Assembly (NCBI RefSeq): GCF_044905095.1
Contig: NZ_CP173258.1
Span: 2,931,277 to 2,995,276, forward strand
Reading direction: 5' to 3'
DNA: 64,000 nucleotides
DNA from: Sphingomonas sp. MMS24-J13
GTDB taxonomy: Bacteria > Pseudomonadota > Alphaproteobacteria > Sphingomonadales > Sphingomonadaceae
The notes beneath the pieces were generated by a model. That model made no database searches. It was not told the DNA's origin and saw nothing but the letters and a program-made list of their open reading frames with translations. The translations under genes were made by a program, and so were the position numbers. The first letter of the stretch is position 1. The number at the start of each line of letters is the position of its first letter. Positions 3,505 to 29,021 of this stretch are shown piece by piece.

Positions 3505-5328
3505 TCAACCCGCCAACGCCTCTGGCCCGGACCGCGCCTGCGCCACCACGACCCGATCGCGCCCGGCGCGCTTGGCCTGGAGCAGGCACGCGTCGGCCGT
3601 CTGCACCAGCCGGTCGGAAGGGCAATGGTCCGGCGCGGTCGCAACTCCCAACGACGCCGCGACCGGCCCGAGCTCGCGCCCCTCGTGCCAGACCCGCAGG
3701 GCCGCAACACGCCGGCGGATCTCCTCGGCGCGATCGGCCGCATGCGCGGAATCGACCCCCGGCAACAGCACGAGGAACTCCTCGCCGCCGTGGCGGAAGG
3801 CGAGATCGCGATCGCGCACCAGTTGCTTGAGCACGGTCGCGACCGCCTGGATCACCTCGTCGCCGGCATCATGGCCATATTCGTCGTTGAAATGCTTGAA
3901 ATGATCGATGTCGAGCATGATCGCGCTGATCGATGCACCATCGCGATCGGCTTCGGCCAGTTCGGCCTTGAGCACGCTCTCCAGCCGCCGGCGATTGGCG
4001 AGCGCGGTCAGTGGATCGGCCAATGCCTGCCCGCGCAACGCGTCGCGCAGTTGCAGATTGTCGAGCGCCAGCCCGACGTTCTCCGCCAGCGTGCGCAGAT
4101 AAACTTCGGGCACGGGATCGGCGAGGCGACCGGCGAGACGCTCGAAATAGAGCAGGCCCAGCGTGCCATGCTGCGCAGCAAGCGGCATGCATATGCTGTC
4201 GGGCAAATCCGCGCCCTCGTGCACAATATGATCGCATGGGACATCGAGCCGGCTGCCCGCCGGACGATGCGGAATGCCCCGCCGCAGCCCCCAGCAGGCC
4301 AGAGGTGGGAATTCCGGTTTGGATGCGACCGGATCCAGCCAAGACGAGGCCTCGACCATCGCATTGCGGCTGCGATCGAACAGATAGAGCCGGCCGGCCA
4401 GCTGCGGCGCGATCTCGGGCACGAAGCGTTCGACCACATGGCGCAGATCGTCGGTCGTATCGCAGCTCTGCATCCGCTGCGTCATGCGCGAGAGCAGATC
4501 GCGCACCAGGCGATCGGCATCGCGCTCCTGTTCGAGCCGCTGACGCGCGAGGCCATTTTCGCGGAAGATGCGCAGCGCCTGCGACATGTCGCCGATCTCG
4601 TCGACCTGCTGGAGCATCGGCGGCTCGGCGGCATAATCCTGCGCTGCCAGCCGTGTCACCACATCGCTGAGCTTGATCACCGGGTGCAGCACGCGCCGAC
4701 GGAACACGAAATAGAGCACGAACAGAAAGAGCAGCCCGGTCACGGCCAGCAACGTCTCCGAAGCCCCGCGCCACAGCCGCGACGTGCCGATCGCAGCGTT
4801 GAGCGCCGTATCGGTGCGCTGGTCGATCCGGTCCTGAAAGCGCTCGACGCTGCTCTGGATACGATCGAGTTCGCGTTCATATTCCGGTGAGAACAGGATC
4901 GCGAGCGCATCGCCACGTTTTCCCTGCTGGAGCGCCGCGAGTGCCGTCTGCTGCTCGTCGCGTAGCGCATCGGCCCAGCGCATCGTTTCGTGCAGCATGC
5001 GCAGCTCTTCGGGGCTGGCGCCGGCATCGCGGATACGCGCCGTGCGCGCCTCGATCGCGCCCAGCAGACGCGCTTCGCGCCGGTAGGCAGCTAGGTCGGC
5101 CGGATTGCCGCTGATCACATATTGCCGCGCCAGCCCGCTCAGCTGCGCGACATCCTCGTCGATGGTCGAGGTCGCATGATCCAGCGTCTGGCGCTCGACC
5201 GCTACAGCCCGCTCGCGCTCCTGCGCCGAAGAGGCGGCAAGCATGGTCGCACCCGACGCTAACGTAAGCGCGACAGTGATGCCATAAGCCCAGTTGGTGA
5301 TCGTCGCCAAGCGCATGGCGGGCAGCAT
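3505..5328 (-). CDS. Membrane sensor diguanylate cyclase (2 TM + HAMP + sensory region + GGDEF)
   Basis: C-terminal GGDEF domain with RHGGEEF active-site motif. N-terminal TM, periplasmic helical region, second TM. Confidence 0.8.
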   Translation of the reverse strand: MLPAMRLATITNWAYGITVALTLASGATMLAASSAQERERAVAVERQTLDHATSTIDEDVAQLSGLARQYVISGNPADLAAYRREARLLGAIEARTARIRDAGASPEELRMLHETMRWADALRDEQQTALAALQQGKRGDALAILFSPEYERELDRIQSSVERFQDRIDQRTDTALNAAIGTSRLWRGASETLLAVTGLLFLFVLYFVFRRRVLHPVIKLSDVVTRLAAQDYAAEPPMLQQVDEIGDMSQALRIFRENGLARQRLEQERDADRLVRDLLSRMTQRMQSCDTTDDLRHVVERFVPEIAPQLAGRLYLFDRSRNAMVEASSWLDPVASKPEFPPLACWGLRRGIPHRPAGSRLDVPCDHIVHEGADLPDSICMPLAAQHGTLGLLYFERLAGRLADPVPEVYLRTLAENVGLALDNLQLRDALRGQALADPLTALANRRRLESVLKAELAEADRDGASISAIMLDIDHFKHFNDEYGHDAGDEVIQAVATVLKQLVRDRDLAFRHGGEEFLVLLPGVDSAHAADRAEEIRRRVAALRVWHEGRELGPVAASLGVATAPDHCPSDRLVQTADACLLQAKRAGRDRVVVAQARSGPEALAG

Positions 5329-15081: not shown

Positions 15082-16725
15082 TTAGCCGATCACCTTCGTA
15101 TCGCCCCGCCACGCTAGTCGCGCGCCCGCACGATCCGCCCGCGCCGCCTGTTTCCTGCCCAACGCATCCTCCGCCTTCGCCCGGATCGCAAGCGCGACCG
15201 CATCGCGCGGGCGACGCTTCAACGATGCATCGGCCGCCGTGACCGCATCGCCCGCCTTGCCGCTTGCGAGCAAGGCGGCGGCGACGTCGCGGCGGACCGG
15301 ATACCACCAGATCGGCGGATCGGTCGCATCGGCGAAGGTCTTTGATTCCTCGATCGACGCGGCCTTTGCGAAGAGCTTCGCGGCGTCGACCGGCTTGTTC
15401 TGCAGCATCGCCGCACGTCCCTCGAGCACCAGCTTGGCGAGCTTGAACAATTTGGGGGCGGCCCCGCCCGTCGGATCGGGGTCGAGCGTCTCCGGCATCG
15501 CCTTCGCCTCGGCCAGCACGCCAGCGACATTGCCGGCGCGCGCGAACATCTCGCCGCGCGCATAACGCCAGAAGGCCTGCGCCGGACCATTATCCTTGCC
15601 CGGATCGGGGATGGCGAGCATTTCTTCGGCCGGCGCGTAGCGCGCGATCGCGATATAGGCGTCGCCGACGGCATGCTGGCTGTAGCGGTCGATCCTGGGC
15701 GTGCGCTTCGCCATCGCCACCACCGGCCGCGCCAGCCCGAGCGCGGCATTGCCGTCATCGGCCATCAGCGCGCCGGCGATCCCGAATACGACGTTGTGCC
15801 CGTAATAAGAGAGCGTCCAGCGCCCGTCGGGCTCGGCCAGCTTGAGCCGCTTCGCATTGTCGTCGCCGATCGCGACCGCATGGATGTTGGCCGTCGCCGC
15901 ATCCTCATAGCGCCCGATCCAGTAATAGGTATGCGAAGGCATGTGGACGAGGTGGCTCGCCGCCGGTGCGAGCGCCGCGAGCTTGTCCGCATAAGGCGTC
16001 GCGCGATCGGGATAGCCGCCCGCCTCGGTTGCATGGATGTAGAAATGGATCGCCGGCGTATAATCCGGATGACGCTTGAGCACGCCTTCGAGCAAAGCGA
16101 CCGGGCGAAGCATGCTCGCCGGCTTGTAATCGCTGTCGATCATCAACGCGTCGGCGGCGACGACGGCGATCTCGTCATCACCGGGCGATGCCGTGGCCAT
16201 CGCGTCCATCGCCTGCGCGAAGGCGTGATTGCCCTTGTCGTTGGTGTAACGCAGCCTGAGCGCGGCGATCAGAGCGCGCTCGTTCGGGGGTCCATCCTGC
16301 GCCAGTTTCTCGGCGGTGAGCGTGATCAGCGCGAGCTTCTCGCGGGCCTTGGCATCGATGCCGTAGTTGATCGTCGGCCCCGACGACCACGCTTCGCCCC
16401 ACGCGCACATCGCGCAATCGGGATCGAGCCGGCGTGCCTGCTGGAACGCCTCGATCGCGGCCTTGTGCGCGAAGGCGTGGGCAAGCTGCATGCCGTTGTC
16501 GAAGAAGGCCTGCGCCGTCGGATTCTTTGTCCGGATCGCGAAGCCACCGCCGCCATAGCCGGCGAGGATGCGCGGACTGCTGCCGGTGTCGACCGGATCG
16601 CCGCACCAATGCGGTGTGGCCGGGACAGGCGCTGGCGGTGGGGGCGGGGGCGCGCTGCCGAACAGGATCAGCATGGCGGGAATCAACAGTTTGCGCACGG
16701 GCGCCGCTCCAGAATCCGGGACCAT
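15082..16725 (-). CDS. Hypothetical secreted protein with TPR-like helical repeats
   Basis: Start refined to MVPDSG...LLIPAMLILFGSA signal peptide, followed by a Pro-rich linker. The remainder is helical-repeat-like. No specific family recognised. Confidence 0.45.
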   Translation of the reverse strand: MVPDSGAAPVRKLLIPAMLILFGSAPPPPPPAPVPATPHWCGDPVDTGSSPRILAGYGGGGFAIRTKNPTAQAFFDNGMQLAHAFAHKAAIEAFQQARRLDPDCAMCAWGEAWSSGPTINYGIDAKAREKLALITLTAEKLAQDGPPNERALIAALRLRYTNDKGNHAFAQAMDAMATASPGDDEIAVVAADALMIDSDYKPASMLRPVALLEGVLKRHPDYTPAIHFYIHATEAGGYPDRATPYADKLAALAPAASHLVHMPSHTYYWIGRYEDAATANIHAVAIGDDNAKRLKLAEPDGRWTLSYYGHNVVFGIAGALMADDGNAALGLARPVVAMAKRTPRIDRYSQHAVGDAYIAIARYAPAEEMLAIPDPGKDNGPAQAFWRYARGEMFARAGNVAGVLAEAKAMPETLDPDPTGGAAPKLFKLAKLVLEGRAAMLQNKPVDAAKLFAKAASIEESKTFADATDPPIWWYPVRRDVAAALLASGKAGDAVTAADASLKRRPRDAVALAIRAKAEDALGRKQAARADRAGARLAWRGDTKVIG

Positions 16726-16839
16726 CCATCTGCTCGCACGATCGGACAGCGAATGCGACGGGAATGTGCTTCGGCTCGCTGGCGGAACGAGCAGGGCTGC
16801 TCTATGCCGGTCGTTTCCTGCCCGAACGAGACTAAATCC

Positions 16840-18756
16840 ATGGCTTTGGTGAAGAAAACCGCGTTGGGAACCCGCAAGCGGGCCGTCGTCCCGGCCGAAG
16901 CGCCGGCAGCGGCCAAGCCGGCCCCGCGGCGCCCCGCCGCGGCGCCTGCGCGCGCGGCAACGGTGGTGCAGCGGATCGATCAGGCGACGCAGGAACTGGC
17001 GAGCGGGCTGGCCGAGGCGTCGGCAGCATCGACCGAGCTTCAGCAATCGATGGATCAGATCTCCAGCGGCGCGGAAGAAGCGGCGGGCGCCGCACAGGAA
17101 TTGTTGGGCGCGATCGCGGCGCTCGGTGCCGCTTTCCAGAAAGCGCGCGAGCGCGCCGAGGAATCGCGCCGCCAGTCCGAAACCGTGCAGGTCGCCTTCC
17201 AGGAGGCAAGCGTCCAGATCGACACGTCGGTCGCGGCGATCGAGCTCAATGCGCGCCGGCAGCTCGCCACGGTCGAAACCATCGACGCGCTCGAGGCGGC
17301 GGCGTCCGATATCGGCGAGATCGGCCAGGCGGTGGCGGACCTGTCCGAGCAGACCAGCCTGCTCGCGCTCAACGCGGCGATCGAGGCGGCGCGCGCCGGC
17401 GACAGCGGCTCCGCCTTCGCGGTGGTCGCCGACGAGGTGCGGGCGCTGGCCGAGACTTCCGAGGGCAATGCCGGCGATATCCAGCGGCTGTCAGCCAGCA
17501 TCGCCACCGAGGTTCGCGCCGTCGCCGATCGGGTGCGCGCGGCGGCGGCCACCGCCACGGCGGAGGCCGATGCCGGGCGCGGCGTCATCGCCCAGCTCGA
17601 GACCGGCCGCAGCGAACTCGCCGCGCTGGCGAGCGGCTCGCAGGAGATCCTGCTGACCGCGGTCGAGGCCGACGGCGCGGCGCGCGAGGCCCAGCGCGGC
17701 GCCGAGCAGGTGGCGAGCGCGGCGGAGGAGCAATCCGCCGCCGCGGCCGAGGCACAGCAGGCGATCACGCAGCAGAGCCTGTCGCTCGAGCAGAGCCAGC
17801 AGACCGCCGAGGAACTCGGCCGGCTGACCGGCGCGCTGGAGGACGAAGCCGCACGCCAGATGACCGCGCAGGAAGTGGCCGCGGCGGCCGAGGAATTGTC
17901 GGCGACCGTGCAGGAATTGTCGGGCGCTTCCAGCCAGATCCAAGTCGCGATCGAGCAGATCGGGCGCGGCGCCGAGATCCAGGCGGCCGCGACGCTCGAG
18001 GCGAACAGCGCGATGGCGCAGATCGAGAGGTCGGCGGCACTGGCGGAGGAACGGTCGAGCGAGGCGGCCGCGCGCATCGGGGGCGTCGTCGCCGGCGTGG
18101 CCGTCAGCCGTGAAACCGTGGGCCGGCTCGCCGCGGGGGTCGATACGGCTTTGGTCGAAACACGCGCCGTGCTCGGCCTGCTCGCCGGCCTCAACGAGAC
18201 CGGACGGCGGATCGAGAAGATCACCGACGGCCTCGCCTCGATCGCGTTGCAGACCAACATGCTCGCAGTCAGCGGATCGGTCGAGGCGACACGCGCCGCC
18301 GAAGCCGGAGTCGGCTTCGCTACGGTGGCTGGCGATATCCGCAAGCTTTCGCGCGAAGCCGCGCTCAATGCCGAGCGCGCCAGGGATGTCATCCGCGCGA
18401 TCCAGGATCAGGTGACCGCCGTCCGCCGCGATCTCGACCAGATCGTCGGCGCGGCCGAAGACGAGACCGCGCGCAACCGCGCGATGGTCGAGCGCTTCCG
18501 CATGATTGCGGCCGATCTCGACGCGGCGCAGGCGGCAAGCCGCGGTATTTCCGGCGATGCCGAGGCAATTCTGCGATCGGTGCGCGAGGTCAAGAGCGGG
18601 ACCGAGCAGATCGCGACCGCCGCCGACATCGCCTCCAGCGCCGCGCGGGAGGCCGCCAGCGCCGCCCGCCAGCAGGCGCAGGGGACCGAATTGCTCGCCG
18701 CCGCGATCGAGGAGATCGCATCGCTCGCCGAAGCGCTGGCGACGCAGGCCGCCTGA
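16840..18756 (+). CDS. Soluble methyl-accepting chemotaxis protein with two tandem signalling (MA) domains
   Basis: No TM segments. Canonical tip motif TSLLALNAAIEAARAGDSGSAFAVVADEVRALAE, and a second degenerate copy QTNMLAVSGSVEATRAAEAGVGFATVAGDIRKLS about 300 aa downstream. The 1027-aa ORF's N-terminal portion is antisense to the neighbouring gene. Confidence 0.8.
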   Translation: MALVKKTALGTRKRAVVPAEAPAAAKPAPRRPAAAPARAATVVQRIDQATQELASGLAEASAASTELQQSMDQISSGAEEAAGAAQELLGAIAALGAAFQKARERAEESRRQSETVQVAFQEASVQIDTSVAAIELNARRQLATVETIDALEAAASDIGEIGQAVADLSEQTSLLALNAAIEAARAGDSGSAFAVVADEVRALAETSEGNAGDIQRLSASIATEVRAVADRVRAAAATATAEADAGRGVIAQLETGRSELAALASGSQEILLTAVEADGAAREAQRGAEQVASAAEEQSAAAAEAQQAITQQSLSLEQSQQTAEELGRLTGALEDEAARQMTAQEVAAAAEELSATVQELSGASSQIQVAIEQIGRGAEIQAAATLEANSAMAQIERSAALAEERSSEAAARIGGVVAGVAVSRETVGRLAAGVDTALVETRAVLGLLAGLNETGRRIEKITDGLASIALQTNMLAVSGSVEATRAAEAGVGFATVAGDIRKLSREAALNAERARDVIRAIQDQVTAVRRDLDQIVGAAEDETARNRAMVERFRMIAADLDAAQAASRGISGDAEAILRSVREVKSGTEQIATAADIASSAAREAASAARQQAQGTELLAAAIEEIASLAEALATQAA

Positions 18757-18758
18757 GC

Positions 18759-20141
18759 ATGGCACGCGCCGCCAAGCCCGATACGGAGCGCGTGCTCGCC
18801 TTCCGCGTGGGAGACGAGCGGTTCGGCTTGCCGGCCGCGATCGTGCGTGAAGTGGCGCGGATACCGCGCGTGACGCGGGTGCCGCATGCGCCCGCCAGCC
18901 TGATCGGGCTCGGCAATTTTCGCGGAGCGGTGCTGCCGATCGTGTCCTTCGCCAAGCTGGCCGATCGTACGGCGCACGACGAGCGGCGCGTGATCCTGCT
19001 CGACACGACCAGCCCGCTCGCGCTCGCCGTCGACGAGGTGACGGCACTTGGCGAGGACGAGCGGGTCCAGCGCATCGACATCGGCACGCTTACCGCGCGC
19101 GATTTCGCCGGCGGCAACCGCAAGGCGCGGGTCGCCGCCAAGAGCGTCGAGGCAGACGCGACGGAGGCCGAAGGCGTCGTCACGCTCGTCGCATTTGCCG
19201 TCGCCGGGCAAGATTATGCGCTACCGGTCACGGCGGTGCAGGAGGTGCTGCGGCTGCCCGCCGGTATCGCGTTGCTGCCACATGCCGATGCGGTCGTGGT
19301 GGGATCGGTCGCGGTGCGCGATGCACTGCTGCCGTTATTGTCGCTTCAGGCGCTGCTGGGGTTGCCGGGCGAGCACGATCACAGCCGCGCGCGGGTCGTG
19401 GTGGTGAAGATGGGCTCGCATCGTATCGGGCTGGTCGTCGATGCGATGCATGCGATCCTGCGTGTTTCCGAACACGATATCGATCCGGTGCCGGCGGTAC
19501 TGGCACGCGGCACGGCCGAAGCGCGCGTGCAGGCGATCTGTCGGCTGGACGAGGGCCGGCGGCTCGTCTCTGTGCTCGCGATCGAGCATCTCGTCCGCGA
19601 AGATCTCACCCAGCGCCTGCTGCAAGGAACCGAGGAAGCGATGGCCGGGCAAGACGCAAGCGAGCCAACCGAGCAGTTCTTGCTCTTCCGCGTCGGCGAG
19701 GAGGAGTTCGGTCTGCCGATCGGCGCGGTGGTCGAGGTGGCGCGCCCGCCGGCCAAATTGACCAAATTGCCCAAAGCGCCGGCCTTCGTGCAGGGGATCA
19801 TGAATTTGCGCGGTGCGGTGGTGCCGGTGATCGATCAGGCGCAACGCTTTGGCGCGGCGGCCGCAACCGGCGCGCGCCGACGAGTGATCGTCGTTCGCCT
19901 GGGTGCGTTACAGGCCGGGTTCGTGGTCGACTCGGTATCGGAGGTGATGCGGATTCCGGCGAGCGCACTCCGTCCGGCACCCGAGCTTGGCGGCGAGGAG
20001 ACGCGGGTCTTCGATCGCGTCGCCAATCTGGAAGAGGCCGGGCGGATGGTGCTGATCGTCAGCCCGCAGGAACTGCTCGATCGCGCCGAGCGTGCAATGC
20101 TGGCGAAGCTCAGCGGAAAGCTGCCGGCCACCGCACCGTGA
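18759..20141 (+). CDS. cheW: Triple-CheW-domain coupling protein
   Basis: Three consecutive CheW-like modules beginning at about residues 10, 150 and 305 (FRVGDERFGLP..., FAVAGQDYALP..., FRVGEEEFGLP...). Confidence 0.8.
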   Translation: MARAAKPDTERVLAFRVGDERFGLPAAIVREVARIPRVTRVPHAPASLIGLGNFRGAVLPIVSFAKLADRTAHDERRVILLDTTSPLALAVDEVTALGEDERVQRIDIGTLTARDFAGGNRKARVAAKSVEADATEAEGVVTLVAFAVAGQDYALPVTAVQEVLRLPAGIALLPHADAVVVGSVAVRDALLPLLSLQALLGLPGEHDHSRARVVVVKMGSHRIGLVVDAMHAILRVSEHDIDPVPAVLARGTAEARVQAICRLDEGRRLVSVLAIEHLVREDLTQRLLQGTEEAMAGQDASEPTEQFLLFRVGEEEFGLPIGAVVEVARPPAKLTKLPKAPAFVQGIMNLRGAVVPVIDQAQRFGAAAATGARRRVIVVRLGALQAGFVVDSVSEVMRIPASALRPAPELGGEETRVFDRVANLEEAGRMVLIVSPQELLDRAERAMLAKLSGKLPATAP

Positions 20142-21223
20142 TCCGCCTGCTTATCGTCGATGATTCGCCGCTGATGCGGAAGTTGCTGACCGATATCTTC
20201 GCCGCGGAAAGTGATTTCGAGGTGGGGGTGGCACGCAACGGGCCGGAGGCGCTTGCGGCTTTGCCGGTGTTCAAGCCCGATGTGATCACGCTCGATATCC
20301 ATATGCCCGAGATGGACGGCCTTGCCTGCCTCGATCGGATCATGGTCGAGCGGCCCTGCCCGGTGGTGATGATCTCCTCGCTCACTGCAGAAGGGGCCGA
20401 CGAGACGCTGGAGGCGATGGCGCTGGGCGCGGTCGATTTCGTCGCCAAGCCGCGCGGGCCGGTCTCGATCGAGATCGAGGCGATGACGTCCCTGCTGGTC
20501 GACAAGGTGCGTGCCGCCGCCCGCGCGCGGATATCGCGCGCGACGCGGCTGACCGAACGCGTCAGGTTGCGGACAACCAGGCCGCCCGCGCCGAAGCCGC
20601 GCCCGACCCGGCTTTCCCAGACGAACAAGCCCCGCGTTTCGGGCGGCGACGAGGGGCTGGTGCTGGTCGGCACCTCGACCGGCGGGCCGGCGGCACTGGA
20701 CGTGCTGCTCGGCCAGATCCCGGCCGATTTTCCGTGGCCGATCGTGATTGCGCAGCACATGCCGGCCAGCTTCACCGGGGCGCTCGCCCGCCGGCTCGAT
20801 CGCTTCTGCCCGCTCGTGATCGAGGAGGTGACCAGGCCCACACCCCTGATCGCCGGCCACGCCTATATCGGCCGCGGCGATGCCGACCTGCTGGTGACGC
20901 GGCGCAATGGCGCGCTTGCCGCTTTGCCGGCGCCGAGCGCACCCGAACTGCATTGGCATCCAAGCGTCGACCGGCTCGTGACCAGCGCGATGGATCATGT
21001 TGCACCCGAACGCCTGATCGGCGTGTTGATGACCGGCATGGGCGCGGACGGCGCCAAAGCGATGACGGCGCTGGCCGGTCGGGGAGGATTGACCATTGCG
21101 GAAGCTGAGGAAAGTGCGGTCGTGTGGGGCATGCCCGGATCGCTCGTCGCGATGGGCGGTGCCGATCATGTCGTGCCGCTCGACGCGATTGCGGGCCGTC
21201 TGATGAGCCTGATCCAACCGTGA
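20138..21223 (+). CDS. cheB: Chemotaxis response regulator protein-glutamate methylesterase CheB
   Basis: GTG start overlapping the cheW stop. REC domain (LIVDDSPLMRKLL...DIHMPEMDG) plus methylesterase domain (GTSTGGPAAL, IAQHMP). Confidence 0.9.
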   Translation: MIRLLIVDDSPLMRKLLTDIFAAESDFEVGVARNGPEALAALPVFKPDVITLDIHMPEMDGLACLDRIMVERPCPVVMISSLTAEGADETLEAMALGAVDFVAKPRGPVSIEIEAMTSLLVDKVRAAARARISRATRLTERVRLRTTRPPAPKPRPTRLSQTNKPRVSGGDEGLVLVGTSTGGPAALDVLLGQIPADFPWPIVIAQHMPASFTGALARRLDRFCPLVIEEVTRPTPLIAGHAYIGRGDADLLVTRRNGALAALPAPSAPELHWHPSVDRLVTSAMDHVAPERLIGVLMTGMGADGAKAMTALAGRGGLTIAEAEESAVVWGMPGSLVAMGGADHVVPLDAIAGRLMSLIQP

Positions 21224-22074
21224 GCGATGCGGGCGACGGCCCCAGAAGCGCGATACCCATATTGTCCGAAGACGAATTGGGCCGGGTTACCGAATTGATC
21301 TACCGCTGGACGGGGATGACCTTCGGCGAAACCAAGCGATATTATATCGAGCGGCGCGTTGCCGATCGCATCGCCGCCACGAAGACGGGCGATGCGCGCA
21401 CCTATCTCGCCTACCTCGCCAGCCACGCCGCCGAGCGCGAGACGTTGATCAACGCCTTCACCGTCAACGAAACCTATTTCTATCGCGAGGACCATCAGCT
21501 CGCCGCGCTTTCGAAGGAGATCCTGCCGCAGATCGTCGCGGACAAGCGCCCCGGCGATCTCGTCCGCATCTGGTCGATGCCATGCTCGACCGGGGACGAA
21601 GCCTATTCGATCGCGATCTGGCTGCTCGAACATTGGCCGCTGGTCGATGCCTACAATGTCGAAATCATGGGATCGGATATCGACACCACCGCGATCGAAC
21701 AGGCCAAGGCAGGGCGCTACGCCGCGCGCGCGCTGGCGCGGCTGCCGGCGGAGGTAGTCGAACGCTATTTCGAGGCGGAGCATCGTCATCGCCGCAAGAT
21801 CATCGACGATCTGCGCGAATCGGTGCATTTCACGCCCGCCAACCTGTTCGATCGATCGACGTTGGTGCCGCTCGGCAAGTTCGATGTCATCCTTTGCCGC
21901 AATATGCTGATCTATTTCGACGATGCATCGCGCCTGATCGCGGCGGAGCATCTGTTCGATTGCCTGCGCCCGCGCGGTTTCCTGCTGCTGGGGCATAGCG
22001 AATTGATGGCGCGGATCACCGATCGTTTCACGATGGTTCGCCTCGAGGATGCAATCGTCTATCGTCGCCCCTGA
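21220..22074 (+). CDS. cheR: Chemotaxis protein methyltransferase CheR
   Basis: GTG start overlapping the cheB stop. CheR N-terminal helical domain and SAM-dependent methyltransferase domain (IWSMPCSTGDEAYSIAI, VILCRNMLIYFD). Confidence 0.85.
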   Translation: MSDAGDGPRSAIPILSEDELGRVTELIYRWTGMTFGETKRYYIERRVADRIAATKTGDARTYLAYLASHAAERETLINAFTVNETYFYREDHQLAALSKEILPQIVADKRPGDLVRIWSMPCSTGDEAYSIAIWLLEHWPLVDAYNVEIMGSDIDTTAIEQAKAGRYAARALARLPAEVVERYFEAEHRHRRKIIDDLRESVHFTPANLFDRSTLVPLGKFDVILCRNMLIYFDDASRLIAAEHLFDCLRPRGFLLLGHSELMARITDRFTMVRLEDAIVYRRP

Positions 22075-23999
22075 TGGACGAACTGCTCGAGCAATTCCTG
22101 ATCGAAGGGCGCGACCTGGTGCTGCAAGGCCAGGCGGAGTTCGCCGTCCTGCTCGACGAACCGGCGAACGCACGCGCGATAGACGGTGCCTTCCGCGCAA
22201 TCCACACCCTCAAGGGATCGGTCGGCATCTTCGACATGCGCGCCGCCGAGCGCGTGCTTCACGCCGCCGAGACCCTGCTCGATCGCGCGCGTAAGGACCC
22301 GGCCGGATTGCCTGCAGATGCGGTACCGCGGCTCGTCGAGAGCCTCGACCAGATCGATCGCTGGATCGACGAACTCGAACGGGACGGCGCGATCGGCGCA
22401 GGCGCCGACGCGATCGCCGATCGACTGCTGGGCGACGTCGCGGTTCTCGCCGAAGCACCCGCAGGCGAAGCCACTGCGGCAGAAGCGGTTCCGCAATGGG
22501 CCGCCGATCTGGTCGCGCACGAGATCGACACGCTGGCGGGTGCCGACGCTCCGCTCGTCGCCTTCCGCTACACCCCCGATACCGACGCCTTTTTCCGCGG
22601 CGACGATCCGATCACCCTGATCTCGCAGGTCCCCGCGATCGCGGCGCTCGCCGTTTTGCCGTCCGGCGGCGCATGGCCTGACTCGGCGATGTTCGATCCC
22701 TTCGCCTGCACGATGGTGATCGAGGGCCTGTCCGGCGCGCCGATCGACGATTTGCGCGCGATATTCCGGCTCGTGCCCGATCAGGTCTCCTTGCATGCGA
22801 TCGAAGCAAGGAGCGTCGGCGTCGCGGACTCGGTGTCCACCAGCACGATCTTGCGGGTCGATGCCGCACGGGTGGACGCACTGGCGGATGAAGTGGGTGA
22901 ATTGTCGGTCGCGGCGAATGCCTTCTCGGCCATCGCGGAGCGTGCGGCGCGGATCGATCCTGCCCTCGCGCTGGCGATCCGCGCCGCGCAGGCCGATCTC
23001 GATCGGTCGATCGGTGCGGTCCATCGGTCGGTCACGGCGGTGCGGCTGGTGCCGCTCGGGCCCGCGCTGGCGCGCCTGCCGCGCCAGGTGCGGGAGATCG
23101 CGGCCGGGCTCGGCAAGCCGGTCGAATTCACCGTCAGCGGCGATCAGATCGAAGTCGACAAGCAGATCGCCGATGGCCTGTTCGAGCCGTTGCTCCATCT
23201 CGTCCGCAACGCGATCGACCATGGTATCGAGCCGGCGGAGGCTCGCGCCGCGGCGGGCAAGGCGGCGACCGGGCAGTTGTCGCTCCGGATCGCACGCGAC
23301 GGCGAGGACGTCGTCGTAACATTGGCCGACGACGGCGCCGGAATCGATCCGGCCCGCATCCGCGACGTCGCGATCCAACGGCGGCTGATCGATGCCGAGG
23401 CGGCGGCGCGACTGACCGACGCAGCGACGACCGCCCTGATCTTCGCGCCCGGTTTCTCGACCGCGGCGACGGTGAGCGGTGTATCCGGGCGCGGGGTCGG
23501 CATGGACGCGGTTCAGGCGGCGGTCGATCGCATGCGCGGCCGGATCGAAATCGATAGCCGGATCGGCGAGGGCACGCGGTTCGTGCTGCGGTTGCCCGCC
23601 AATGCGCTCACCACCCGGCTGCTGCTGGTCGAGATCGGGCAAGACCGCTACGCGGTGCCGTTCGATCAGATCGTCGAGACCGCCCGGGTGAGCCAGGACC
23701 GGCTGGTTCCGCTCGGCACCGGCACTGCCTGCGTGCTGCGCAATCGCACCGTGCCCGTGCTGAGCCTGGCCGAATTGCTCGGCGGGGCGGAGGCCCGATC
23801 CGATCCGGCACGGCTGCTCATCACCCACGCCAGCGGTGAGCCGGTAGCGCTGCGGGTCGACGGCTTCAGCGATCGGATCGATGCGATGGTGCGCCCGCCG
23901 ACCGGCCTGCTCGCGGGCGTACCGAGCGTGGCCGGCACGACGCTGACGGGCGATGGCGGCGTGCTGATCGTGCTCGACCTGCTGGAGCTGGTCGGATGA
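22074..23999 (+). CDS. cheA: Chemotaxis histidine kinase CheA
   Basis: Hpt domain with HTLKGS, dimerisation and HATPase_c (GRGVGMD) domains, C-terminal CheW-like P5 domain, and no receiver. Start overlaps the cheR stop. Confidence 0.9.
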   Translation: MDELLEQFLIEGRDLVLQGQAEFAVLLDEPANARAIDGAFRAIHTLKGSVGIFDMRAAERVLHAAETLLDRARKDPAGLPADAVPRLVESLDQIDRWIDELERDGAIGAGADAIADRLLGDVAVLAEAPAGEATAAEAVPQWAADLVAHEIDTLAGADAPLVAFRYTPDTDAFFRGDDPITLISQVPAIAALAVLPSGGAWPDSAMFDPFACTMVIEGLSGAPIDDLRAIFRLVPDQVSLHAIEARSVGVADSVSTSTILRVDAARVDALADEVGELSVAANAFSAIAERAARIDPALALAIRAAQADLDRSIGAVHRSVTAVRLVPLGPALARLPRQVREIAAGLGKPVEFTVSGDQIEVDKQIADGLFEPLLHLVRNAIDHGIEPAEARAAAGKAATGQLSLRIARDGEDVVVTLADDGAGIDPARIRDVAIQRRLIDAEAAARLTDAATTALIFAPGFSTAATVSGVSGRGVGMDAVQAAVDRMRGRIEIDSRIGEGTRFVLRLPANALTTRLLLVEIGQDRYAVPFDQIVETARVSQDRLVPLGTGTACVLRNRTVPVLSLAELLGGAEARSDPARLLITHASGEPVALRVDGFSDRIDAMVRPPTGLLAGVPSVAGTTLTGDGGVLIVLDLLELVG

Positions 24000-24259
24000 G
24001 CGTGGAAGTGGTTGGCGGCACGATCCGGATCATCGGCAATGCCACCGTTGCGGATGCAGAGCCGCTGCTGGTGGCATTGCAAGGCGATCCGGCCCGGCAT
24101 ATTGATCTTGGCCAGGCGGTACATCTTCACAGCGCCGTAATCCAGATCCTGCTCGCGCTGCGCCCGCGCATCATCGGCAACCCGGCCTATCCATTCTTCA
24201 ACGACTGTATTTTACCGCGCTTGATCGAAGCCAGTGTCCCGCATAGCCCGCCGGGCTAG
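23996..24259 (+). CDS. Small STAS-like protein (putative anti-sigma-antagonist fold), translationally coupled to cheA
   Basis: ATGA overlap with the cheA stop. 87 aa, beta-alpha pattern TIRIIGNATVADAEPLLVALQ reminiscent of STAS. Weak assignment. Confidence 0.4.
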   Translation: MSVEVVGGTIRIIGNATVADAEPLLVALQGDPARHIDLGQAVHLHSAVIQILLALRPRIIGNPAYPFFNDCILPRLIEASVPHSPPG

Positions 24260-24313
24260 ATATATTGTTCGAGCGGCGCGAAGGCGTCCTGAAAACTTGT
24301 TTGGAGTTGCCGG

Positions 24314-24697
24314 ATGGCGGTTACGGTTCTGATAGTCGACGATAGCAAGCTGGCACGCATCGTCGCCGGCAAGGCGCTGGCCGTCCTGCAACCCGAATGG
24401 CAGAAAGCCGAAGCCGGCAGCGCCGATCAGGCGATGGAGGTTCTTGCCGCGCAGGCGATCGATGTCGCCCTAATCGACTTCAACATGCCCGATCGCGACG
24501 GCCTCCAGCTTGCCGAGGAATTGCGCGCGCTTCGGCAGGATATGCCGATCGCGATCATCACCGCCAACATCCAGGACGAGGTTATCGCGCGCGCGCGCGC
24601 AGTCGGTGCCACCTTCGTCGCCAAACCGGTCACCGCGGATGGGCTGCATGGTTTTCTGTCGGGCGCAGCGCTGCGGCTGCGAGCCGTAAAGGGATGA
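24314..24697 (+). CDS. cheY: Single-domain CheY-like response regulator
   Basis: REC domain: LIVDDSKLAR, DFNMPDRDG, and a conserved Lys region. Confidence 0.8.
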   Translation: MAVTVLIVDDSKLARIVAGKALAVLQPEWQKAEAGSADQAMEVLAAQAIDVALIDFNMPDRDGLQLAEELRALRQDMPIAIITANIQDEVIARARAVGATFVAKPVTADGLHGFLSGAALRLRAVKG

Positions 24698-25332
24698 TTC
24701 CTGAGAGCATTGCGCTGGCCGAACTCGAGCGCGATGCGCTGACCGAGATCGTCAATATCGGCGTCAGCCGCGCCGCGTCCAACCTGCGCAAGATGATCGG
24801 CGGCGAGGTCTTGCTCTCGGTGCCGTCGATAGAGGTGGTGAGCCAGCGCCGCGCCGCGCGGCTGATCAGCGAACGAGAGGTGAGCGAGCTGATCGCCGTC
24901 CGTCAGAATTTCCAGGGCCCCTTCTCCGGCTGCGCGTTGCTGATCTTTCCCGAAACCAACAGCCTCGAACTGGTGCGCGCGGTGACGGGCGGCGAACTGA
25001 GCACGGCCGAACTGATCGAGATGGAGCATGAGGCGCTGGCGGAGACCGGGAATATCATCCTCAATTCGTGCCTCGCGACGATGGCGAACATGCTCAAGCG
25101 ATCGCTGACGATGACCTTGCCAGAAGTCATTCGCGGATCCGGCTCGACCCTGTTCGACGTCAACGAGAGCACGACGGCGGACGGGCTCGTGCTGTTCCTC
25201 TATATCGATTTCGCCGTCCGCAAGCATGACATTCGTGGGTATATAGCGATGATCATGGACCTGCCCTCGCTCACCACGCTCAAGGAATTGCTGGGCGAAT
25301 TCATCGAGCGCATCGTCGGCAGCGATGGCTGA
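24694..25332 (+). CDS. cheC: CheC-family CheY-P phosphatase
   Basis: Two CheC active-site-like segments (DALTEIVNIGVSRAASNL and EALAETGNIILNSCLATMANML). ATGA overlap with the cheY stop. Confidence 0.7.
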   Translation: MIPESIALAELERDALTEIVNIGVSRAASNLRKMIGGEVLLSVPSIEVVSQRRAARLISEREVSELIAVRQNFQGPFSGCALLIFPETNSLELVRAVTGGELSTAELIEMEHEALAETGNIILNSCLATMANMLKRSLTMTLPEVIRGSGSTLFDVNESTTADGLVLFLYIDFAVRKHDIRGYIAMIMDLPSLTTLKELLGEFIERIVGSDG

Positions 25333-27313
25333 TCTCAGTCCGGCAAGCAGCAACGACCAGATCCGCGCGATCCTCGCGGCGGCAGGGGCGAGCGGCACCT
25401 GGGACTGGGATATCAAAAGCGGCACCGTCTGCGTCGATGCGCGCTTCGCCGACCTTTATGGCCTGGCCGAGGATGAGGCCGGCATCCCATTGCCGACGCG
25501 GACCTTTTTCAAGGCGATCCACCCCGACGATCAGGCGCGGATCCGGATCGCCGTCGCAGGCATGACTGCGGGCGCAGAGCACTTTTCCAAGGAATTCCGT
25601 GTGGTTACGTCCGAAGGCGTAATCCTGTGGGTCCACGGGCGGGGCCAGACCCATTTCGACGAGGCCGACCAGCCCGATCATTTCACCGGGCTGCTGGTCG
25701 ACGTCACCGAACGTAAACGCACCGAGGAACGCCTGCGCATTGCGCAGAGCGCCGGCGGGGTCGGCACCTTCGAATATTCCGACGGCTTCGCCACGGCGAC
25801 CGTCTCGTCAGAGTTCTGCCGGTTGCTCGGCCTGCACCCCGCCCGGATCCTGCCGGTCCGCACGATCAATGCGGTGCTGAAATCGGGCGAACAGGGCCTG
25901 TTGATTCCCGACTCGCACCGCGGGGATCCGCCCGCTACGCTCGACGCGACCTTTTGCGTCATGCGGAACGACGATGGCGCGCAACGCTGGATCGCACGGC
26001 GCGGCGAGATCATGCGCGATGGCGACGGCGGCTACCGCCTGATCGGCGTGATCTACGACGTTACGGCCTCCAAGGCGCAGGAAGCCGCTCTGGTCGAGCT
26101 CAACGAGACGCTCGAGACACGGATCGAAACCGCGATCGCCGATCGCCAGCAGGCGGAGGATGCGCTGCGTCAGGCGCAGAAGATGGAGGCGGTCGGCAAC
26201 CTCACCGGCGGCATCGCACACGATTTCAACAATCTGCTGACGATCATCATCGGCAATATCGACACGGTCTCGCGCCGGCTGAGCGCCGATTCCGAAGCCG
26301 ATCCCCGCGCGCGGCGCGCACTGGAAAATGCGCTGAAGGGTGCCGAGCGCGCCGCTGCGCTGACGCAGCGCCTCCTCGCTTTCTCGCGCCGCCAGCCGCT
26401 GGCACCCAAGGCGATCGACGTCGCGCGTTTGCTGGCGGGCATGTCCGATCTGCTGACCCGATCGATCACCGAGACGATCGCGATCCAGATGCTGGCGCCT
26501 TCGGATCTGTGGACGGTCGAAGCCGATCCCAACCAGCTCGAAAATGTCATCCTCAACCTCGCGGTGAATGCGAGGGACGCGATGCCCGACGGTGGACAGC
26601 TAACGATCGAGGCCAGGAACGTCACGATCGGTGCCGGCCAGCTCCGCGACGTGCCCGCCGGCGCCTATGTCGTCGTTTCAGTCTGCGACAACGGCATGGG
26701 GATGGCGCCCGAAACCGTCGCGAAGGTGTTCGATCCCTTCTTCACCACCAAGGAGGTTGGCAAAGGTACCGGGCTCGGACTGTCGATGGTCTATGGCTTC
26801 GCCAAGCAATCGGGCGGGCATATCCACATCGAGTCCGCACTGGGCGCCGGTACGACGATGTCGCTTTATCTGCCGCGCCAGCACGGCACCGAAGATCCGA
26901 TCGAGCTGGAGACTGCTACGGCCGAGCCGGGGCATCATTCCGAAACGGTGCTGGTTGTCGAGGATGACGAGGACGTGCGCGCCTATACGGCCGGCATACT
27001 GCGCGAGCTCGGCTACCGCGTGATCGAGGCCTATGACGGCGCCTCGGCGCTTCGGACCCTGGAGCGTGCCGATCAGCCGATCCATCTGCTCCTGACCGAC
27101 GTGGTGATGCCCAACATGTCGGGCAGCGAACTCGCCGATGCTGCCCGGCGCCTCCGATCCGACCTGAGGGTGCTCTTCATCTCCGGCTACACCCGCGACG
27201 CGATCGTCCGGGACGGCCGGCTGGAGCCCGGCGTCGATCTGCTCTCCAAGCCCTTCACCTACACGACATTGTCGAAGAAGTTGCGCGACGTGTTGGATCG
27301 AGAGACCGACTGA
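25325..27313 (+). CDS. PAS-containing hybrid sensor histidine kinase / response regulator
   Basis: Two PAS-like regions, HisKA (IAHDFNNLLTII), HATPase_c (GTGLGLSMV), and a C-terminal REC (LLLTDVVMPNMSG). 8-nt overlap with cheC. Confidence 0.85.
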   Translation: MADLSPASSNDQIRAILAAAGASGTWDWDIKSGTVCVDARFADLYGLAEDEAGIPLPTRTFFKAIHPDDQARIRIAVAGMTAGAEHFSKEFRVVTSEGVILWVHGRGQTHFDEADQPDHFTGLLVDVTERKRTEERLRIAQSAGGVGTFEYSDGFATATVSSEFCRLLGLHPARILPVRTINAVLKSGEQGLLIPDSHRGDPPATLDATFCVMRNDDGAQRWIARRGEIMRDGDGGYRLIGVIYDVTASKAQEAALVELNETLETRIETAIADRQQAEDALRQAQKMEAVGNLTGGIAHDFNNLLTIIIGNIDTVSRRLSADSEADPRARRALENALKGAERAAALTQRLLAFSRRQPLAPKAIDVARLLAGMSDLLTRSITETIAIQMLAPSDLWTVEADPNQLENVILNLAVNARDAMPDGGQLTIEARNVTIGAGQLRDVPAGAYVVVSVCDNGMGMAPETVAKVFDPFFTTKEVGKGTGLGLSMVYGFAKQSGGHIHIESALGAGTTMSLYLPRQHGTEDPIELETATAEPGHHSETVLVVEDDEDVRAYTAGILRELGYRVIEAYDGASALRTLERADQPIHLLLTDVVMPNMSGSELADAARRLRSDLRVLFISGYTRDAIVRDGRLEPGVDLLSKPFTYTTLSKKLRDVLDRETD

Positions 27314-27361
27314 TCCCACCGCCGGCCGCGCCATCGCCGGCCGCATCGCCCCGCAACAATG

Positions 27362-27412
27362 CTGTCATGCGATTCGCTTAACCAAAAGCGAAAGCGACAT
27401 GACAGGGGCTGA
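27362..27412. promoter_or_regulatory. Imperfect ~50-bp palindrome (ctgtcatgcgattcgctt...aagcgaaagcgacatgacag) spanning the annotated pit start codon
   Basis: Inverted repeat visible directly. It contains a CTGTCAT Pho-box-like half-site and overlaps ATG 27399, so the true start may be ATG 27417 or later. Confidence 0.35.
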
Positions 27413-29021
27413 TTTAATGAACGCGACTATTGCCATGTCTCCGCGGGCGACCCGCCCGGAGATGGACAAGGGGTTGGGCAAGGCCGGAATGCTGGGCTTC
27501 GGCGCAGCGGTGATCGCGGCGATCCTGTACGTGGCGTACAGCGTCTATATCGATGCGAGCGCGGCCGGCGTGCATGCCTCGGCCTATCTGCCCTTCTTCC
27601 TGCTGTTCGTGGCGCTGCTGATCGCGCTCGGCTTCGAGTTCGTGAACGGCTTTCACGACACCGCCAATGCCGTCGCGACGGTGATCTACACCAACGCGCT
27701 GCCGGCCAATGTCGCGGTCGTGTGGTCGGGCTTCTTCAACTTCCTCGGCGTGCTGCTCTCCACTGGCGCGGTCGCGTTCGGCATCGTCTCGCTGCTGCCG
27801 GTCGAGCTGATCCTGCAGGTCGGCTCGCATGCCGGCTTCGCGATGGTGTTCGCCTTGCTGATCGCGGCGATCCTGTGGAACCTCGCCACCTGGTGGCTCG
27901 GTATCCCTTCCTCCAGCTCGCACACATTGATCGGGTCGATCATCGGTGTCGGCGTCGCCAACGCGCTGCTGCACGGCAAAAGCGGCACGGCGGGCGTCGA
28001 CTGGGGCAAGGCCACCGAAATCGGCCAGGCGCTTCTGCTTTCCCCGCTCGTCGGCTTCGGCCTCGCCGCGCTCTTGTTCATCGCGATGAAACTGCTCGTC
28101 AAACGGCAGGACCTTTACAGCGAGCCCAAGGACGGCCTGCCCCCGCCGCTGTGGATCCGCGCTTTGCTGATCTTCACCTGCACCGGCGTGAGCTTCGCGC
28201 ACGGATCGAACGACGGGCAGAAGGGCATGGGCCTGATCATGCTGATCCTGATCGGCACCGTGCCCACCGCTTATGCGCTCAACCGCGCCGTGCCCGAGAA
28301 ATATGCCGTCGAATTCCACATGAATTCGGCCGCCGCCGCCAGCGCGCTGGGCCAGACTCCGCCCGCCGGCGAAACCGCCGCCGAGGCGCGCAGGCAGGTG
28401 ACCACCTATATCGCCGACAAGCATTTCGCGCCGGCGACCCTCCCCGCATTGTCGGTGCTGATCGGCGACGTCGACAAGCAGGTGCGCGAATATGGCTCGC
28501 TCGCGAACGTTCCGCAGGCCGCGGTCAACAACATGCGCAACGACATGTATCTCGCCTCCGAGGCGATCAAGCGCCTGGGCAAGGACAAAGCCGCGAACCT
28601 GTCGGACGCGAGCATCAAGTCGCTCAATACCTACAAGAAGTCGCTCGATGCAGCGACGCGCTTCATCCCGACCTGGGTCAAGATCGCGGTCGCCTTCGCG
28701 CTCGGCCTCGGCACGATGGTCGGCTGGAAGCGGATCGTCGTCACCGTCGGCGAGAAGATCGGCAAGACCCACCTCACCTATGCGCAGGGCGTGTCGGCCG
28801 AGCTGGTGGCGATGGGCACGATCTTCGCTGCCGACAATCTCGGCCTGCCGGTCTCGACCACCCATGTGCTGTCGTCGGGTGTCGCGGGTACGATGGCCGC
28901 CAACGGTTCGGGGCTGCAGATGAGCACGTTGCGCAACATGCTGATGGCGTGGGTGCTGACCCTGCCCGTCTCGATCGTGCTGGCGGGCGTGCTTTACACG
29001 GTGTTCTCGCAAATCTTCTGA
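27399..29021 (+). CDS. pit: Inorganic phosphate transporter, PiT family (long form with large central loop)
   Basis: GFHDTANAVATVIYT and C-terminal repeat GSNDGQKGMGLI signatures. ~130-aa hydrophilic loop in the middle. Start uncertain (27399 / 27417 / 27489). Confidence 0.8.
   Translation: MTGADLMNATIAMSPRATRPEMDKGLGKAGMLGFGAAVIAAILYVAYSVYIDASAAGVHASAYLPFFLLFVALLIALGFEFVNGFHDTANAVATVIYTNALPANVAVVWSGFFNFLGVLLSTGAVAFGIVSLLPVELILQVGSHAGFAMVFALLIAAILWNLATWWLGIPSSSSHTLIGSIIGVGVANALLHGKSGTAGVDWGKATEIGQALLLSPLVGFGLAALLFIAMKLLVKRQDLYSEPKDGLPPPLWIRALLIFTCTGVSFAHGSNDGQKGMGLIMLILIGTVPTAYALNRAVPEKYAVEFHMNSAAAASALGQTPPAGETAAEARRQVTTYIADKHFAPATLPALSVLIGDVDKQVREYGSLANVPQAAVNNMRNDMYLASEAIKRLGKDKAANLSDASIKSLNTYKKSLDAATRFIPTWVKIAVAFALGLGTMVGWKRIVVTVGEKIGKTHLTYAQGVSAELVAMGTIFAADNLGLPVSTTHVLSSGVAGTMAANGSGLQMSTLRNMLMAWVLTLPVSIVLAGVLYTVFSQIF

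Follow-up and report, generated by a model that had tools for sequence, protein, structure and literature searches.

The F9 class of chemosensory systems is said to go back to work by Wuichet and Zhulin in 2010, and DosM (VC1403), the receptor of the Vibrio cholerae chemotaxis cluster I / F9, was reportedly presented by Briegel and colleagues in PNAS in 2016 (113:10412). VC1403 is listed as a class 44H receptor. The F9 cytoplasmic arrays of V. cholerae require DosM, which spans two baseplates made of CheA and CheW3 (PMC7534058; PMC9321776), and cryo-ET shows it as an extended rod with its tips at opposite ends (PMC7534058). Among DosM homologues, 98% lack both a transmembrane region and a sensory input domain, and the F9 gene order in Novosphingobium, Sphingobium and Sphingomonas has been given as [DosMW3BRA.YX] (PMC9321776). 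Two proteins, WP_069204555.1 from Sphingomonas panacis and WP_069710031.1 from Novosphingobium resinovorum, are tabulated as DosM with the order [DosM W3 B R A. Y X] (S6 table, PMC9321776). The Che2 cluster of Rhodospirillum centenum contains MCP2 and a tripartite CheW (Berleman & Bauer 2005, per PMC2890560); Che2 controls flagellum synthesis and not taxis, with genetics tying the cluster to lateral-flagellum biosynthesis (PMC2890560), and an R. centenum protein is included in the published tree of DosM and CheW3 (PMC9321776).

Here we describe a locus in a 64-kb stretch of DNA from Sphingomonas sp. MMS24-J13, referred to below as the window. Its architecture, a DosM-type receptor next to a triple CheW, has already been described and is a signature of F9 chemosensory systems. 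We consider it very probable that the window gene is a DosM orthologue in an F9 operon, whose product would most likely serve as the homodimeric, two-tip staple of a two-layer cytoplasmic array.

The dosM-like gene and its operon

The dosM-like gene (16840..18756, on the + strand like all genes described here) runs from an ATG at 16840 to a stop codon at 18754-18756 and codes for a soluble MCP of 638 aa with two tandem signalling domains, as judged from its translation, from two matches to PF00015 and from its identity to catalogued DosM proteins. With WP_069204555.1 of S. panacis the protein shares 62% identity at 99% coverage, and with WP_069710031.1 64% over the full length; its link to V. 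cholerae VC1403 (WP_001185438.1) is transitive, through a tree that holds both Vibrio and sphingomonad proteins (PMC9321776). Full-length relatives are encoded in at least 574 species genomes and the same architecture of ~640 aa recurs in more than 2900 database proteins; the nearest genome in the species collection is that of Sphingomonas natans BIUV-7 (77% identity). An NCBIfam scan yielded no DosM-specific model and generic MCP matches far under their cut-offs, and the NCBIfam matches on the cluster were generic CheA and CheW ones, also under the curated cut-offs. A Kyte-Doolittle scan of the 638-aa protein found no transmembrane segment (best 19-residue mean 1.41), and a Pfam scan found no family besides PF00015 and no sensor domain, so that the label of cytoplasmic receptor given by an earlier, sequence-only reading of this DNA holds.

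Translational coupling links the dosM-like gene with a triple-CheW gene and with cheB, cheR, cheA, cheY and cheX. The start codon of cheW3 (18759..20141) lies 2 nt past the dosM stop codon, and its product is a 460-aa adaptor with three CheW domains (PF01584, E=2.3e-79, three stretches) that matches WP_404710237.1 of Sphingomonas sp. MMS24-J13 exactly. Eighty related loci extend for 479 bp or more past the dosM homologue, and in every one of them a CheW3 homologue comes directly next; the functional association between the two genes that the sequence-only reading had proposed is borne out. Next comes cheB (20138..21223), which overlaps cheW3 by 4 nt and combines a receiver domain with a methylesterase (PF00072, PF01339), followed by the methyltransferase gene cheR (22,074 being its last position, 21220..22074; PF03705, PF01739), whose GTG start, taken from the sequence, overlaps the cheB stop codon (GTGA). 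The cheA gene (22074..23999) codes for Hpt, dimerisation, ATPase and CheW-like domains (PF01627, PF02895, PF02518, PF01584) and is followed by a gene for an 87-aa protein (23996..24259), by cheY with a single receiver domain (24314..24697; PF00072, E=3.2e-21) and by a gene for a CheY-P phosphatase of the CheC/CheX type (24694..25332; PF13690, PF04509), for which NCBIfam returned CheC/FliY-like matches, every one under the curated cut-offs. A hybrid histidine kinase gene (25325..27313; PAS-HisKA-HATPase-REC by its Pfam domains), with an 8-nt overlap at the cheX stop, is the probable ninth member of the operon. A promoter and terminator scan of 16400-27600 gave nothing exceeding chance. The window thus holds cheA, cheB, cheR and cheY together with the MCPsignal:MCPsignal / CheW:CheW:CheW pair, in an order (DosM-CheW3-CheB-CheR-CheA-small ORF-CheY-CheX) that equals the published [DosMW3BRA.YX] and is also found in S. 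panacis.

The gene for the 87-aa protein corresponds to the unnamed '.' that the published F9 order shows after cheA and before cheY, and it is conserved after cheA in 61/82 loci. Its product is assigned a STAS fold because of Pfam scans of individual family members, 46/55 of which match PF13466 (STAS_2), and because of a fold search in which an AF2 model (pLDDT 85) had RsbV and SpoIIAA as its best Foldseek matches; a profile search of the family against PDB sequences gave chance-level matches only. The protein carries an invariant His. As for the PAS hybrid kinase gene, it is found directly 3' of cheX in S. panacis and in most sphingomonad loci.

Arrangement of the two signalling domains

The whole 638-aa protein matches PF00015 (MCPsignal) with E=1e-35 in two stretches. 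When each half was scanned separately, both exceeded the gathering score of 34.6 bits, aa 1-336 with 76.3 bits (aa 144-298 on profile positions 21-168) and aa 337-638 with 63.4 bits (aa 449-592 on positions 26-169). The sequence-only reading, which had named this search as its own test and a single match as the outcome that would speak against it, was therefore right in seeing two tandem signalling domains. BLASTP aligns the first half with the second at 29% identity (E=9e-9) in a register offset by 300 residues, and the tips lie at ~188 and ~488, unlike a canonical MCP with one tip per subunit. A complete MCP hairpin, of an estimated ~44 heptads, occurs in tandem duplicate along the chain, with arms of 145-153 residues or ~21-22 heptads as measured on AF2 helices.

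From its N-terminus, the protein consists of a disordered segment, a helix of 147 residues, tip 1, ~300 helical residues, tip 2 and a helix of 150 residues. The N-terminal region (aa 1-41, 16840..16962) comprises a MALVKK peptide, recognised as a family motif, and a variable segment rich in Pro, Ala, Lys and Arg, for which disorder is predicted (pLDDT <50 at aa 1-37). Signalling domain 1 (aa 42-332, 16963..17835; AF2 helix 42-332 and PF00015) has arms of ~147 and 145 residues, and signalling domain 2 (aa 336-637, 17845..18750; AF2 helices 336-485 and 487-637, PF00015 and matches to 3g67) has arms of ~153 and 150 residues. The midpoint of the long helical stretch is broken only by a short variable junction (aa 333-342, 17836..17865), which is hypervariable and Gly/Asp/Asn/Pro-rich, shows indels of 1-3 residues among homologues in the family alignment, and coincides with a DSSP break and a dip in pLDDT. 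An M-x-L-[VIA]-K-x motif is conserved at the N-terminus of full-length homologues from alpha-, beta- and gammaproteobacteria. The methylation consensus has 7 matches in the protein against 0.9 expected, and the conserved ones (E79/E80, E296-Q298, E351/E352, Q358/E359 and Q611/Q612) are found in both domains, which suggests that the protein is also a substrate of the CheR and CheB of its operon.

By analogy with DosM of V. cholerae, two chains would pair into a four-helix-bundle rod of ~44 nm that carries a kinase-control tip at either end. With one tip inserted in each of two separate CheA/CheW3 baseplates, the protein would staple together the two facing receptor layers of a membrane-free cytoplasmic array. 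We infer this two-baseplate geometry from cryo-ET of a distant homologue, and the rod may not be rigid, since the junction between the domains resembles a flexible loop. The idea of a pseudo-receptor scaffold for the triple-CheW protein, raised by the sequence-only reading, comes close to the spanning of CheA/CheW3 baseplates ascribed to DosM in the literature (PMC7534058; PMC9321776). Since the DosM-like protein has no ligand-binding domain, sensory input would be expected to reach the lattice through other soluble receptors equal to it in length; a tblastn search of the window with both signalling domains returned only the dosM-like gene itself and no partner receptor.

The AF2 model of the monomer (pLDDT 89.2, pTM 0.69) invites a different reading, in which the hairpins of one chain fold back on each other into a four-helix bundle of ~22 nm with two non-identical tips at one end. 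A single polypeptide would then stand in for a receptor dimer, in an array of one layer, and the tips may specialise for CheA or CheW3. The model is all-helical over aa 42-637 with breaks only at 333-335 and 486, and the sole break between the tips is thus a 3-residue turn at the exact midpoint. One of its hairpins, Foldseek leaving unstated which half was aligned, superposes on the cytoplasmic domain of TM1143 (2ch7_A) over 298 columns with an rmsd of 3.0 A and a TMt of 0.85. Against compact proteins of ~700 residues, Foldseek gave an rmsd of ~58 A over ~700 alignment columns, which by our estimate is too small for a 45-nm rod and fits an object of ~22 nm, and the pTM is above what would be expected for loosely hinged hairpins. 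Judged indirectly, from pLDDT, pTM, secondary structure and Foldseek statistics, the model appears to be folded back, with its hairpins side by side and not extended. An indel-tolerant, loop-like junction and tips that are separately conserved yet mutually different point the same way.

However, when only the monomer of an obligate coiled-coil dimer is predicted, burial of the dimer interface is to be expected, so the seemingly side-by-side hairpins, a packing that the sequence-only reading had wondered about, are no evidence for the state in vivo. The homologue in V. cholerae, in addition, is extended across both baseplates by cryo-ET (PMC7534058). Covariation has no power to tell the extended from the folded-back topology because phylogenetic signal dominates: in APC-corrected mutual information from 203 sequences (Neff ~125), even the intra-hairpin contacts that are beyond doubt were enriched just 1-3 fold. 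We regard the folded-back single chain as improbable. Marginally less probable still is a version restricted to the alphaproteobacterial clade, in which there would be no two-layer staple and an asymmetric folded-back chain would use its MALVKK tether as a docking site at the far end. In that version, with the hairpins folded back across the flexible midpoint loop, the side-by-side tips could bind different baseplate partners (CheA P5 versus particular CheW3 domains), and the MALVKK peptide on its disordered tether could dock CheR, CheB or the STAS-like protein. The intramolecular packing resembling a trimer of dimers that the sequence-only reading had entertained finds nothing in its favour and is rejected, since two hairpins are insufficient to form one and the tips of the V. 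cholerae homologue are at opposite ends.

Both tips are under strong purifying selection, as expressed by a majority-residue conservation in 203 homologues of 0.87 for tip 1 and 0.83 for tip 2 against 0.65 for the remaining helices. Tip 1 (aa 170-208, EQTSLLALNAAIEAARAGDSGSAFAVVADEVRALAETSE, 17347..17463) turns at ~D188 and tip 2 (aa 470-508, LQTNMLAVSGSVEATRAAEAGVGFATVAGDIRKLSREAA, 18247..18363) at ~E488, both being delimited by identity to TM1143 and family conservation. The second motif cited in the sequence-only reading, QTNMLAVSGSVEATRAAEAGVGFATVAGDIRKLS, is found at aa 471-504, and both copies of the hairpin-tip motif announced there are indeed present; its contrast between a canonical first copy and a degenerate second one does not stand, since tip 1 is itself imperfectly canonical, having GDSGSAF in place of GEAGRGF, and tip 2 is as conserved as the figures above indicate. 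That domain 2 is a decaying relic of duplication, an Ala-rich coiled coil forming the long tail of a one-tip MCP, could be argued from the greater distance of tip 2 from the canonical sequence (22/39 residues identical to the T. maritima TM1143 tip, against 30/39 for tip 1; 15/39 identical between the two) and from the loss of the Arg of G-R-G-F in the window protein, which reads AGVGF. Yet the family consensus of tip 2 keeps GEAGRGF, domain 2 by itself passes the PF00015 threshold and retains conserved methylation-consensus sites, and the distance between tips is exactly 300 residues in 76 of the 87 homologues with both tips locatable, a spacing kept across alpha-, beta- and gammaproteobacteria. 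The relic reading is very improbable, being effectively refuted by these conservation data, and was rejected; tip 2 is a variant that the family conserves, as constrained as tip 1 and with no sign of decay.

The window DNA has ~70% GC and its ORF list abounds in overlapping spurious frames, among them a mechanical frame of 1027 aa (15673-18756) that extends 5' of the ATG at 16840; the latter is supported as the true start because the N-terminus M-A-L-V-K-K is conserved family-wide. These frames could raise the suspicion that two adjacent MCP genes were joined in error, through misassembly, a frameshift or a miscalled ORF. We rejected this as hardly credible, the comparative data already refuting it: the architecture, N-terminus and tip spacing recur in the genomes and proteins counted above, and neither a stop codon nor a frame change lies between the domains.

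Comparison with described systems

The hairpins can be compared with TM1143 (PDB 2ch7), which we take to be a 44H receptor, and with Tm14 (3g67). Either half of the window protein forms a complete hairpin like theirs, and the PDB sequence matches of the protein cover aa 40-248 for 2ch7 and aa 434-589 for Tm14; however, the Thermotoga receptors have one tip per chain, whereas the window protein has two, joined head to tail.

DosM of V. cholerae is likewise a soluble MCP that lacks a sensor domain and has two signalling domains, and the window hairpins, from the arm lengths in the AF2 model, are estimated to be about 44H in length. In both species dosM adjoins a triple-CheW gene in a cluster with cheB, cheR, cheA and cheY, although the V. 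cholerae order is [DosM W3 B. R Y A. Y M] and that of the window [DosM W3 B R A. Y X] with the PAS hybrid kinase. Unlike the V. cholerae cluster, that of the window includes a gene for a CheC/CheX phosphatase but none for a second MCP. The Che2 cluster of R. centenum differs in having a CheA fused to a receiver domain.

The field is changed little by our results, as a double-domain receptor with a triple CheW is the published F9 signature and an identical sphingomonad operon has been tabulated. The duplicated domain, which the sequence-only reading treated as an unexplained oddity, is what defines a receptor type already described, with sphingomonad examples on record (PMC9321776), and the window protein is an unremarkable representative of a kind that is rare but known. 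The locus is nevertheless a clean example of the alphaproteobacterial F9 variant, with B-R-A-STAS-Y-X followed by a PAS hybrid kinase, and this variant could help work on the physiological output of F9 systems. The N-terminal peptide, the 300-residue spacing, the STAS-fold partner and the hybrid kinase are modest testable leads rather than discoveries.

The closest counterparts are the receptors of S. panacis (WP_069204555.1) and N. resinovorum (WP_069710031.1). They match the window protein in length (639-640 aa against 638), in the N-terminal motif and in the tip positions, and their operons have the same gene order too, with the small ORF, cheX and, after it, the PAS hybrid kinase, so that the only difference from them is divergence at the species level.

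Two signalling domains in one soluble receptor

Our results show that the 638-aa protein coded by dosM (16840-18756, + strand) is a complete long-class MCP hairpin duplicated head-to-tail. The frame is intact, with 638 codons and a stop, and its translation begins MALVKK. The mechanical ORF listing carries the frame back to 15673 because of the ~70% GC content; the M-A-L-V-K-K start is common to the full-length homologues, and therefore 16840 is the true dosM start. PF00015 (MCPsignal) is the sole Pfam family in the protein (E=1e-35), where it matches two stretches. When the halves were scanned separately, both matched independently and covered nearly the entire profile, aa 1-336 with 76.3 bits (profile positions 21-168) and aa 337-638 with 63.4 bits (positions 26-169), against a gathering score of 34.6. 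The two halves are 29% identical (E=9e-9), their registers being shifted by 300 residues, and a search of PDB sequences matched aa 40-248 to TM1143 and aa 434-589 to Tm14, both solved MCP chains. Hydrophobic segments are absent (the highest Kyte-Doolittle mean over 19 residues is 1.41), and the Pfam scan revealed no sensor domain. The cytoplasmic receptor with two tandem signalling domains proposed in the sequence-only reading is thus confirmed at these coordinates, far above chance.

That reading had also described the second hairpin tip as degenerate. The motif that it referred to was located at aa 471-504, and the comparison of 203 homologues does not bear out the description, since majority-residue conservation is 0.83 in tip 2 (aa 470-508) versus 0.87 in tip 1 (aa 170-208) and 0.65 in the other helices, and the family consensus of tip 2 retains GEAGRGF. 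The junction at aa 333-342 has the lowest conservation within the helical region, is rich in Gly, Asp, Asn and Pro, tolerates indels of 1-3 residues, and so appears to behave as a short flexible linker. Of the 87 homologues whose two tips were located by pattern, 76 nevertheless have a tip-to-tip distance of exactly 300 residues, and the retention of this spacing across a hypervariable midpoint points to a strong constraint on length. The methylation consensus [ASTG]2-x2-[EQ]2-x2-[ASTG]2 matches the protein 7 times, with 0.9 matches expected from shuffled sequences; conserved matches occur in both domains, at E79/E80, E296-Q298, E351/E352, Q358/E359 and Q611/Q612. Judging from these sites, the receptor would be methylated by the operon's own CheR and CheB.

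The N-terminus follows the general form M-x-L-[VIA]-K-x in all full-length homologues examined, from alpha-, beta- and gammaproteobacteria, and is followed by ~35 variable Pro/Ala/Lys/Arg-rich residues predicted to be disordered (within 16840-16962, aa 1-41). This arrangement resembles a short linear motif carried by a flexible tether. If the receptor is an extended rod, the peptide would sit at its midpoint, near the methylation-consensus sites; it could be a docking site for CheR, CheB or some other partner.

Predicted fold of the chain

An AlphaFold2 model built from a 45-sequence family alignment (mean pLDDT 89.2) places helices at 42-332, 336-485 and 487-637 and leaves aa 1-41 disordered (pLDDT <50). 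Turns near D188 and E488 are the counterpart of the hairpin turn in canonical receptors and delimit four arms of 147, 145, 153 and 150 residues, or ~21-22 heptads per arm. The whole cytoplasmic domain of Thermotoga maritima TM1143 (2ch7_A) is matched by one of the modelled hairpins over 298 columns with an rmsd of 3.0 A and a TM-score of 0.85, normalised to the target.

The sequence-only reading had raised the question of mutual packing between the two hairpins, and three indirect signs suggest that it occurs in the predicted monomer: an interruption of 3 residues exactly halfway along the model, a pTM of 0.69 versus only ~0.43 for one well-placed half, and Foldseek alignments of ~700 columns to compact proteins with an rmsd of ~58 A. 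By our estimate, such an rmsd is impossible for a 45-nm rod and expected for a 22-nm bundle, so the monomer model appears to be folded back. A single-chain pseudo-dimer with this packing is nonetheless improbable as the native form, because an obligate coiled-coil dimer predicted as a monomer would be expected to bury its dimer interface likewise, and the folded-back model was for this reason not taken against the extended dimer. A covariation test had no power to separate the two topologies.

The F9 operon and its surroundings

The F9 chemosensory class has as its hallmark a double-signalling-domain chemoreceptor with a concatenated triple CheW encoded beside it; in Vibrio cholerae these are the receptor DosM (VC1403) and the adaptor CheW3 (VC1402) (PMC7534058, PMC9321776). 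Here, dosM is the first gene of a tightly coupled operon in which gaps and overlaps are <=8 nt except for 54 nt ahead of cheY. As the sequence-only reading had stated, a triple-CheW gene lies directly after it (18759-20141, +; WP_404710237.1, exact match), with PF01584 three times. Pfam domains then identify, all on the + strand, cheB (20138-21223), cheR (21220-22074), whose GTG start overlaps the cheB stop, and cheA (22074-23999); after an 87-aa ORF (23996-24259, +) whose start overlaps the cheA stop, they identify cheY (24314-24697), a cheC/cheX phosphatase (24694-25332) and a PAS_3-HisKA-HATPase-REC hybrid histidine kinase (25325-27313), with an 8-nt overlap with the cheX stop codon. No second MCP was found anywhere in the 64-kb window, and no flagellar gene among ten further ORFs scanned out of ~36 candidates.

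The product of the 87-aa ORF is identical to WP_404710241.1, annotated "hypothetical protein"; this match and that of the CheW3 protein identify the DNA as coming from Sphingomonas sp. MMS24-J13. Of 82 related F9 loci, 61 keep the ORF behind cheA, and 46 of its 55 relatives give weak PF13466 (STAS_2) matches. A Foldseek search with its AlphaFold2 model (pLDDT 85) ranks RsbV and SpoIIAA, both anti-sigma-factor antagonists, highest (probability 1.0, TM-scores reaching 0.60), and the ORF is therefore predicted to code for a conserved STAS-fold protein. His45, invariant in the family, begins the second helix, presumably at about the position where SpoIIAA carries its phosphorylatable Ser. The PAS hybrid kinase directly follows cheX in S. 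panacis and most sphingomonad F9 loci, as a conserved ninth gene, and lies farther downstream in many other alphaproteobacteria. The published description, DosM W3 B R A. Y X (W3, CheW3; single letters, che genes; point, small ORF), is without this kinase, which could be an input, output or phosphate sink of the sphingomonad variant.

Upstream of dosM, a divergent gene (15082-16722, -) codes for a ~546-aa protein with only a sub-threshold TPR match. The listed ORF begins with a TTG codon at 17046 and would run across the beginning of dosM, so its true start is probably farther downstream; S. panacis has a trehalose-phosphatase gene there instead, and the neighbour is thus not conserved. The window also holds two GGDEF diguanylate-cyclase genes (3505-5328, -, and 38167-39348, +), one with a HAMP domain, a HAMP histidine kinase (36589-37935) and a 703-aa ORF of unusual architecture, with three tandem SnoaL_4 (SnoaL-like) stretches (47850-49961, -).

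Relation to described DosM systems

Full F9 clusters were reported by Mo et al. (2022) in 64 of 2781 genomes surveyed, and the sphingomonad gene order was exemplified by Sphingomonas panacis (WP_069204555.1) and Novosphingobium resinovorum (WP_069710031.1) (PMC9321776). Our homologue search recovered both of these catalogued DosM proteins, confirmed by accession, and the receptor is 62% and 64% identical to them, respectively, over essentially the full length. It is orthologous to the catalogued proteins, and the double-domain receptor is therefore already known, including sphingomonad orthologues in a published table. Full-length relatives occur in at least 574 genomes in a one-genome-per-species scan, the closest in Sphingomonas natans (77%). 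A CheW3 homologue directly follows in all 80 fetched loci with enough downstream DNA, and the complete order from CheW3 to the PAS kinase is present in 47 of the 82 loci compared.

In V. cholerae, DosM is built into the two CheA/CheW3 baseplates of a cytoplasmic array with two layers, for which it appears essential. It takes up every other trimer of dimers (PMC7534058), so the remaining lattice positions must be occupied by further soluble receptors. The suggestion that the receptor is a scaffold for the triple-CheW protein fits this published role; intramolecular trimer-of-dimers packing does not. The results obtained here show directly that the protein is a double hairpin without a sensor domain, that both tips are conserved at a fixed spacing, and that the gene is coupled to its operon and orthologous to those of the catalogued DosM proteins. 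By homology, two chains would pair as a homodimeric rod of ~44 nm (2 x ~150 residues x ~0.148 nm), each end placing one tip in a separate baseplate. DosM would then be a structural staple of a membrane-free two-layer array, with sensory input supplied by other receptors.

The V. cholerae F9 system has no known phenotype (PMC7534058), and in Rhodospirillum centenum the synthesis of lateral flagella is under the control of the Che2 cluster, whose CheW is tripartite (PMC2890560). VC1403 is listed as class 44H, with which the arm lengths predicted here appear compatible, and the nine genes of the S. panacis locus are identical in kind and order to those of the operon described here.
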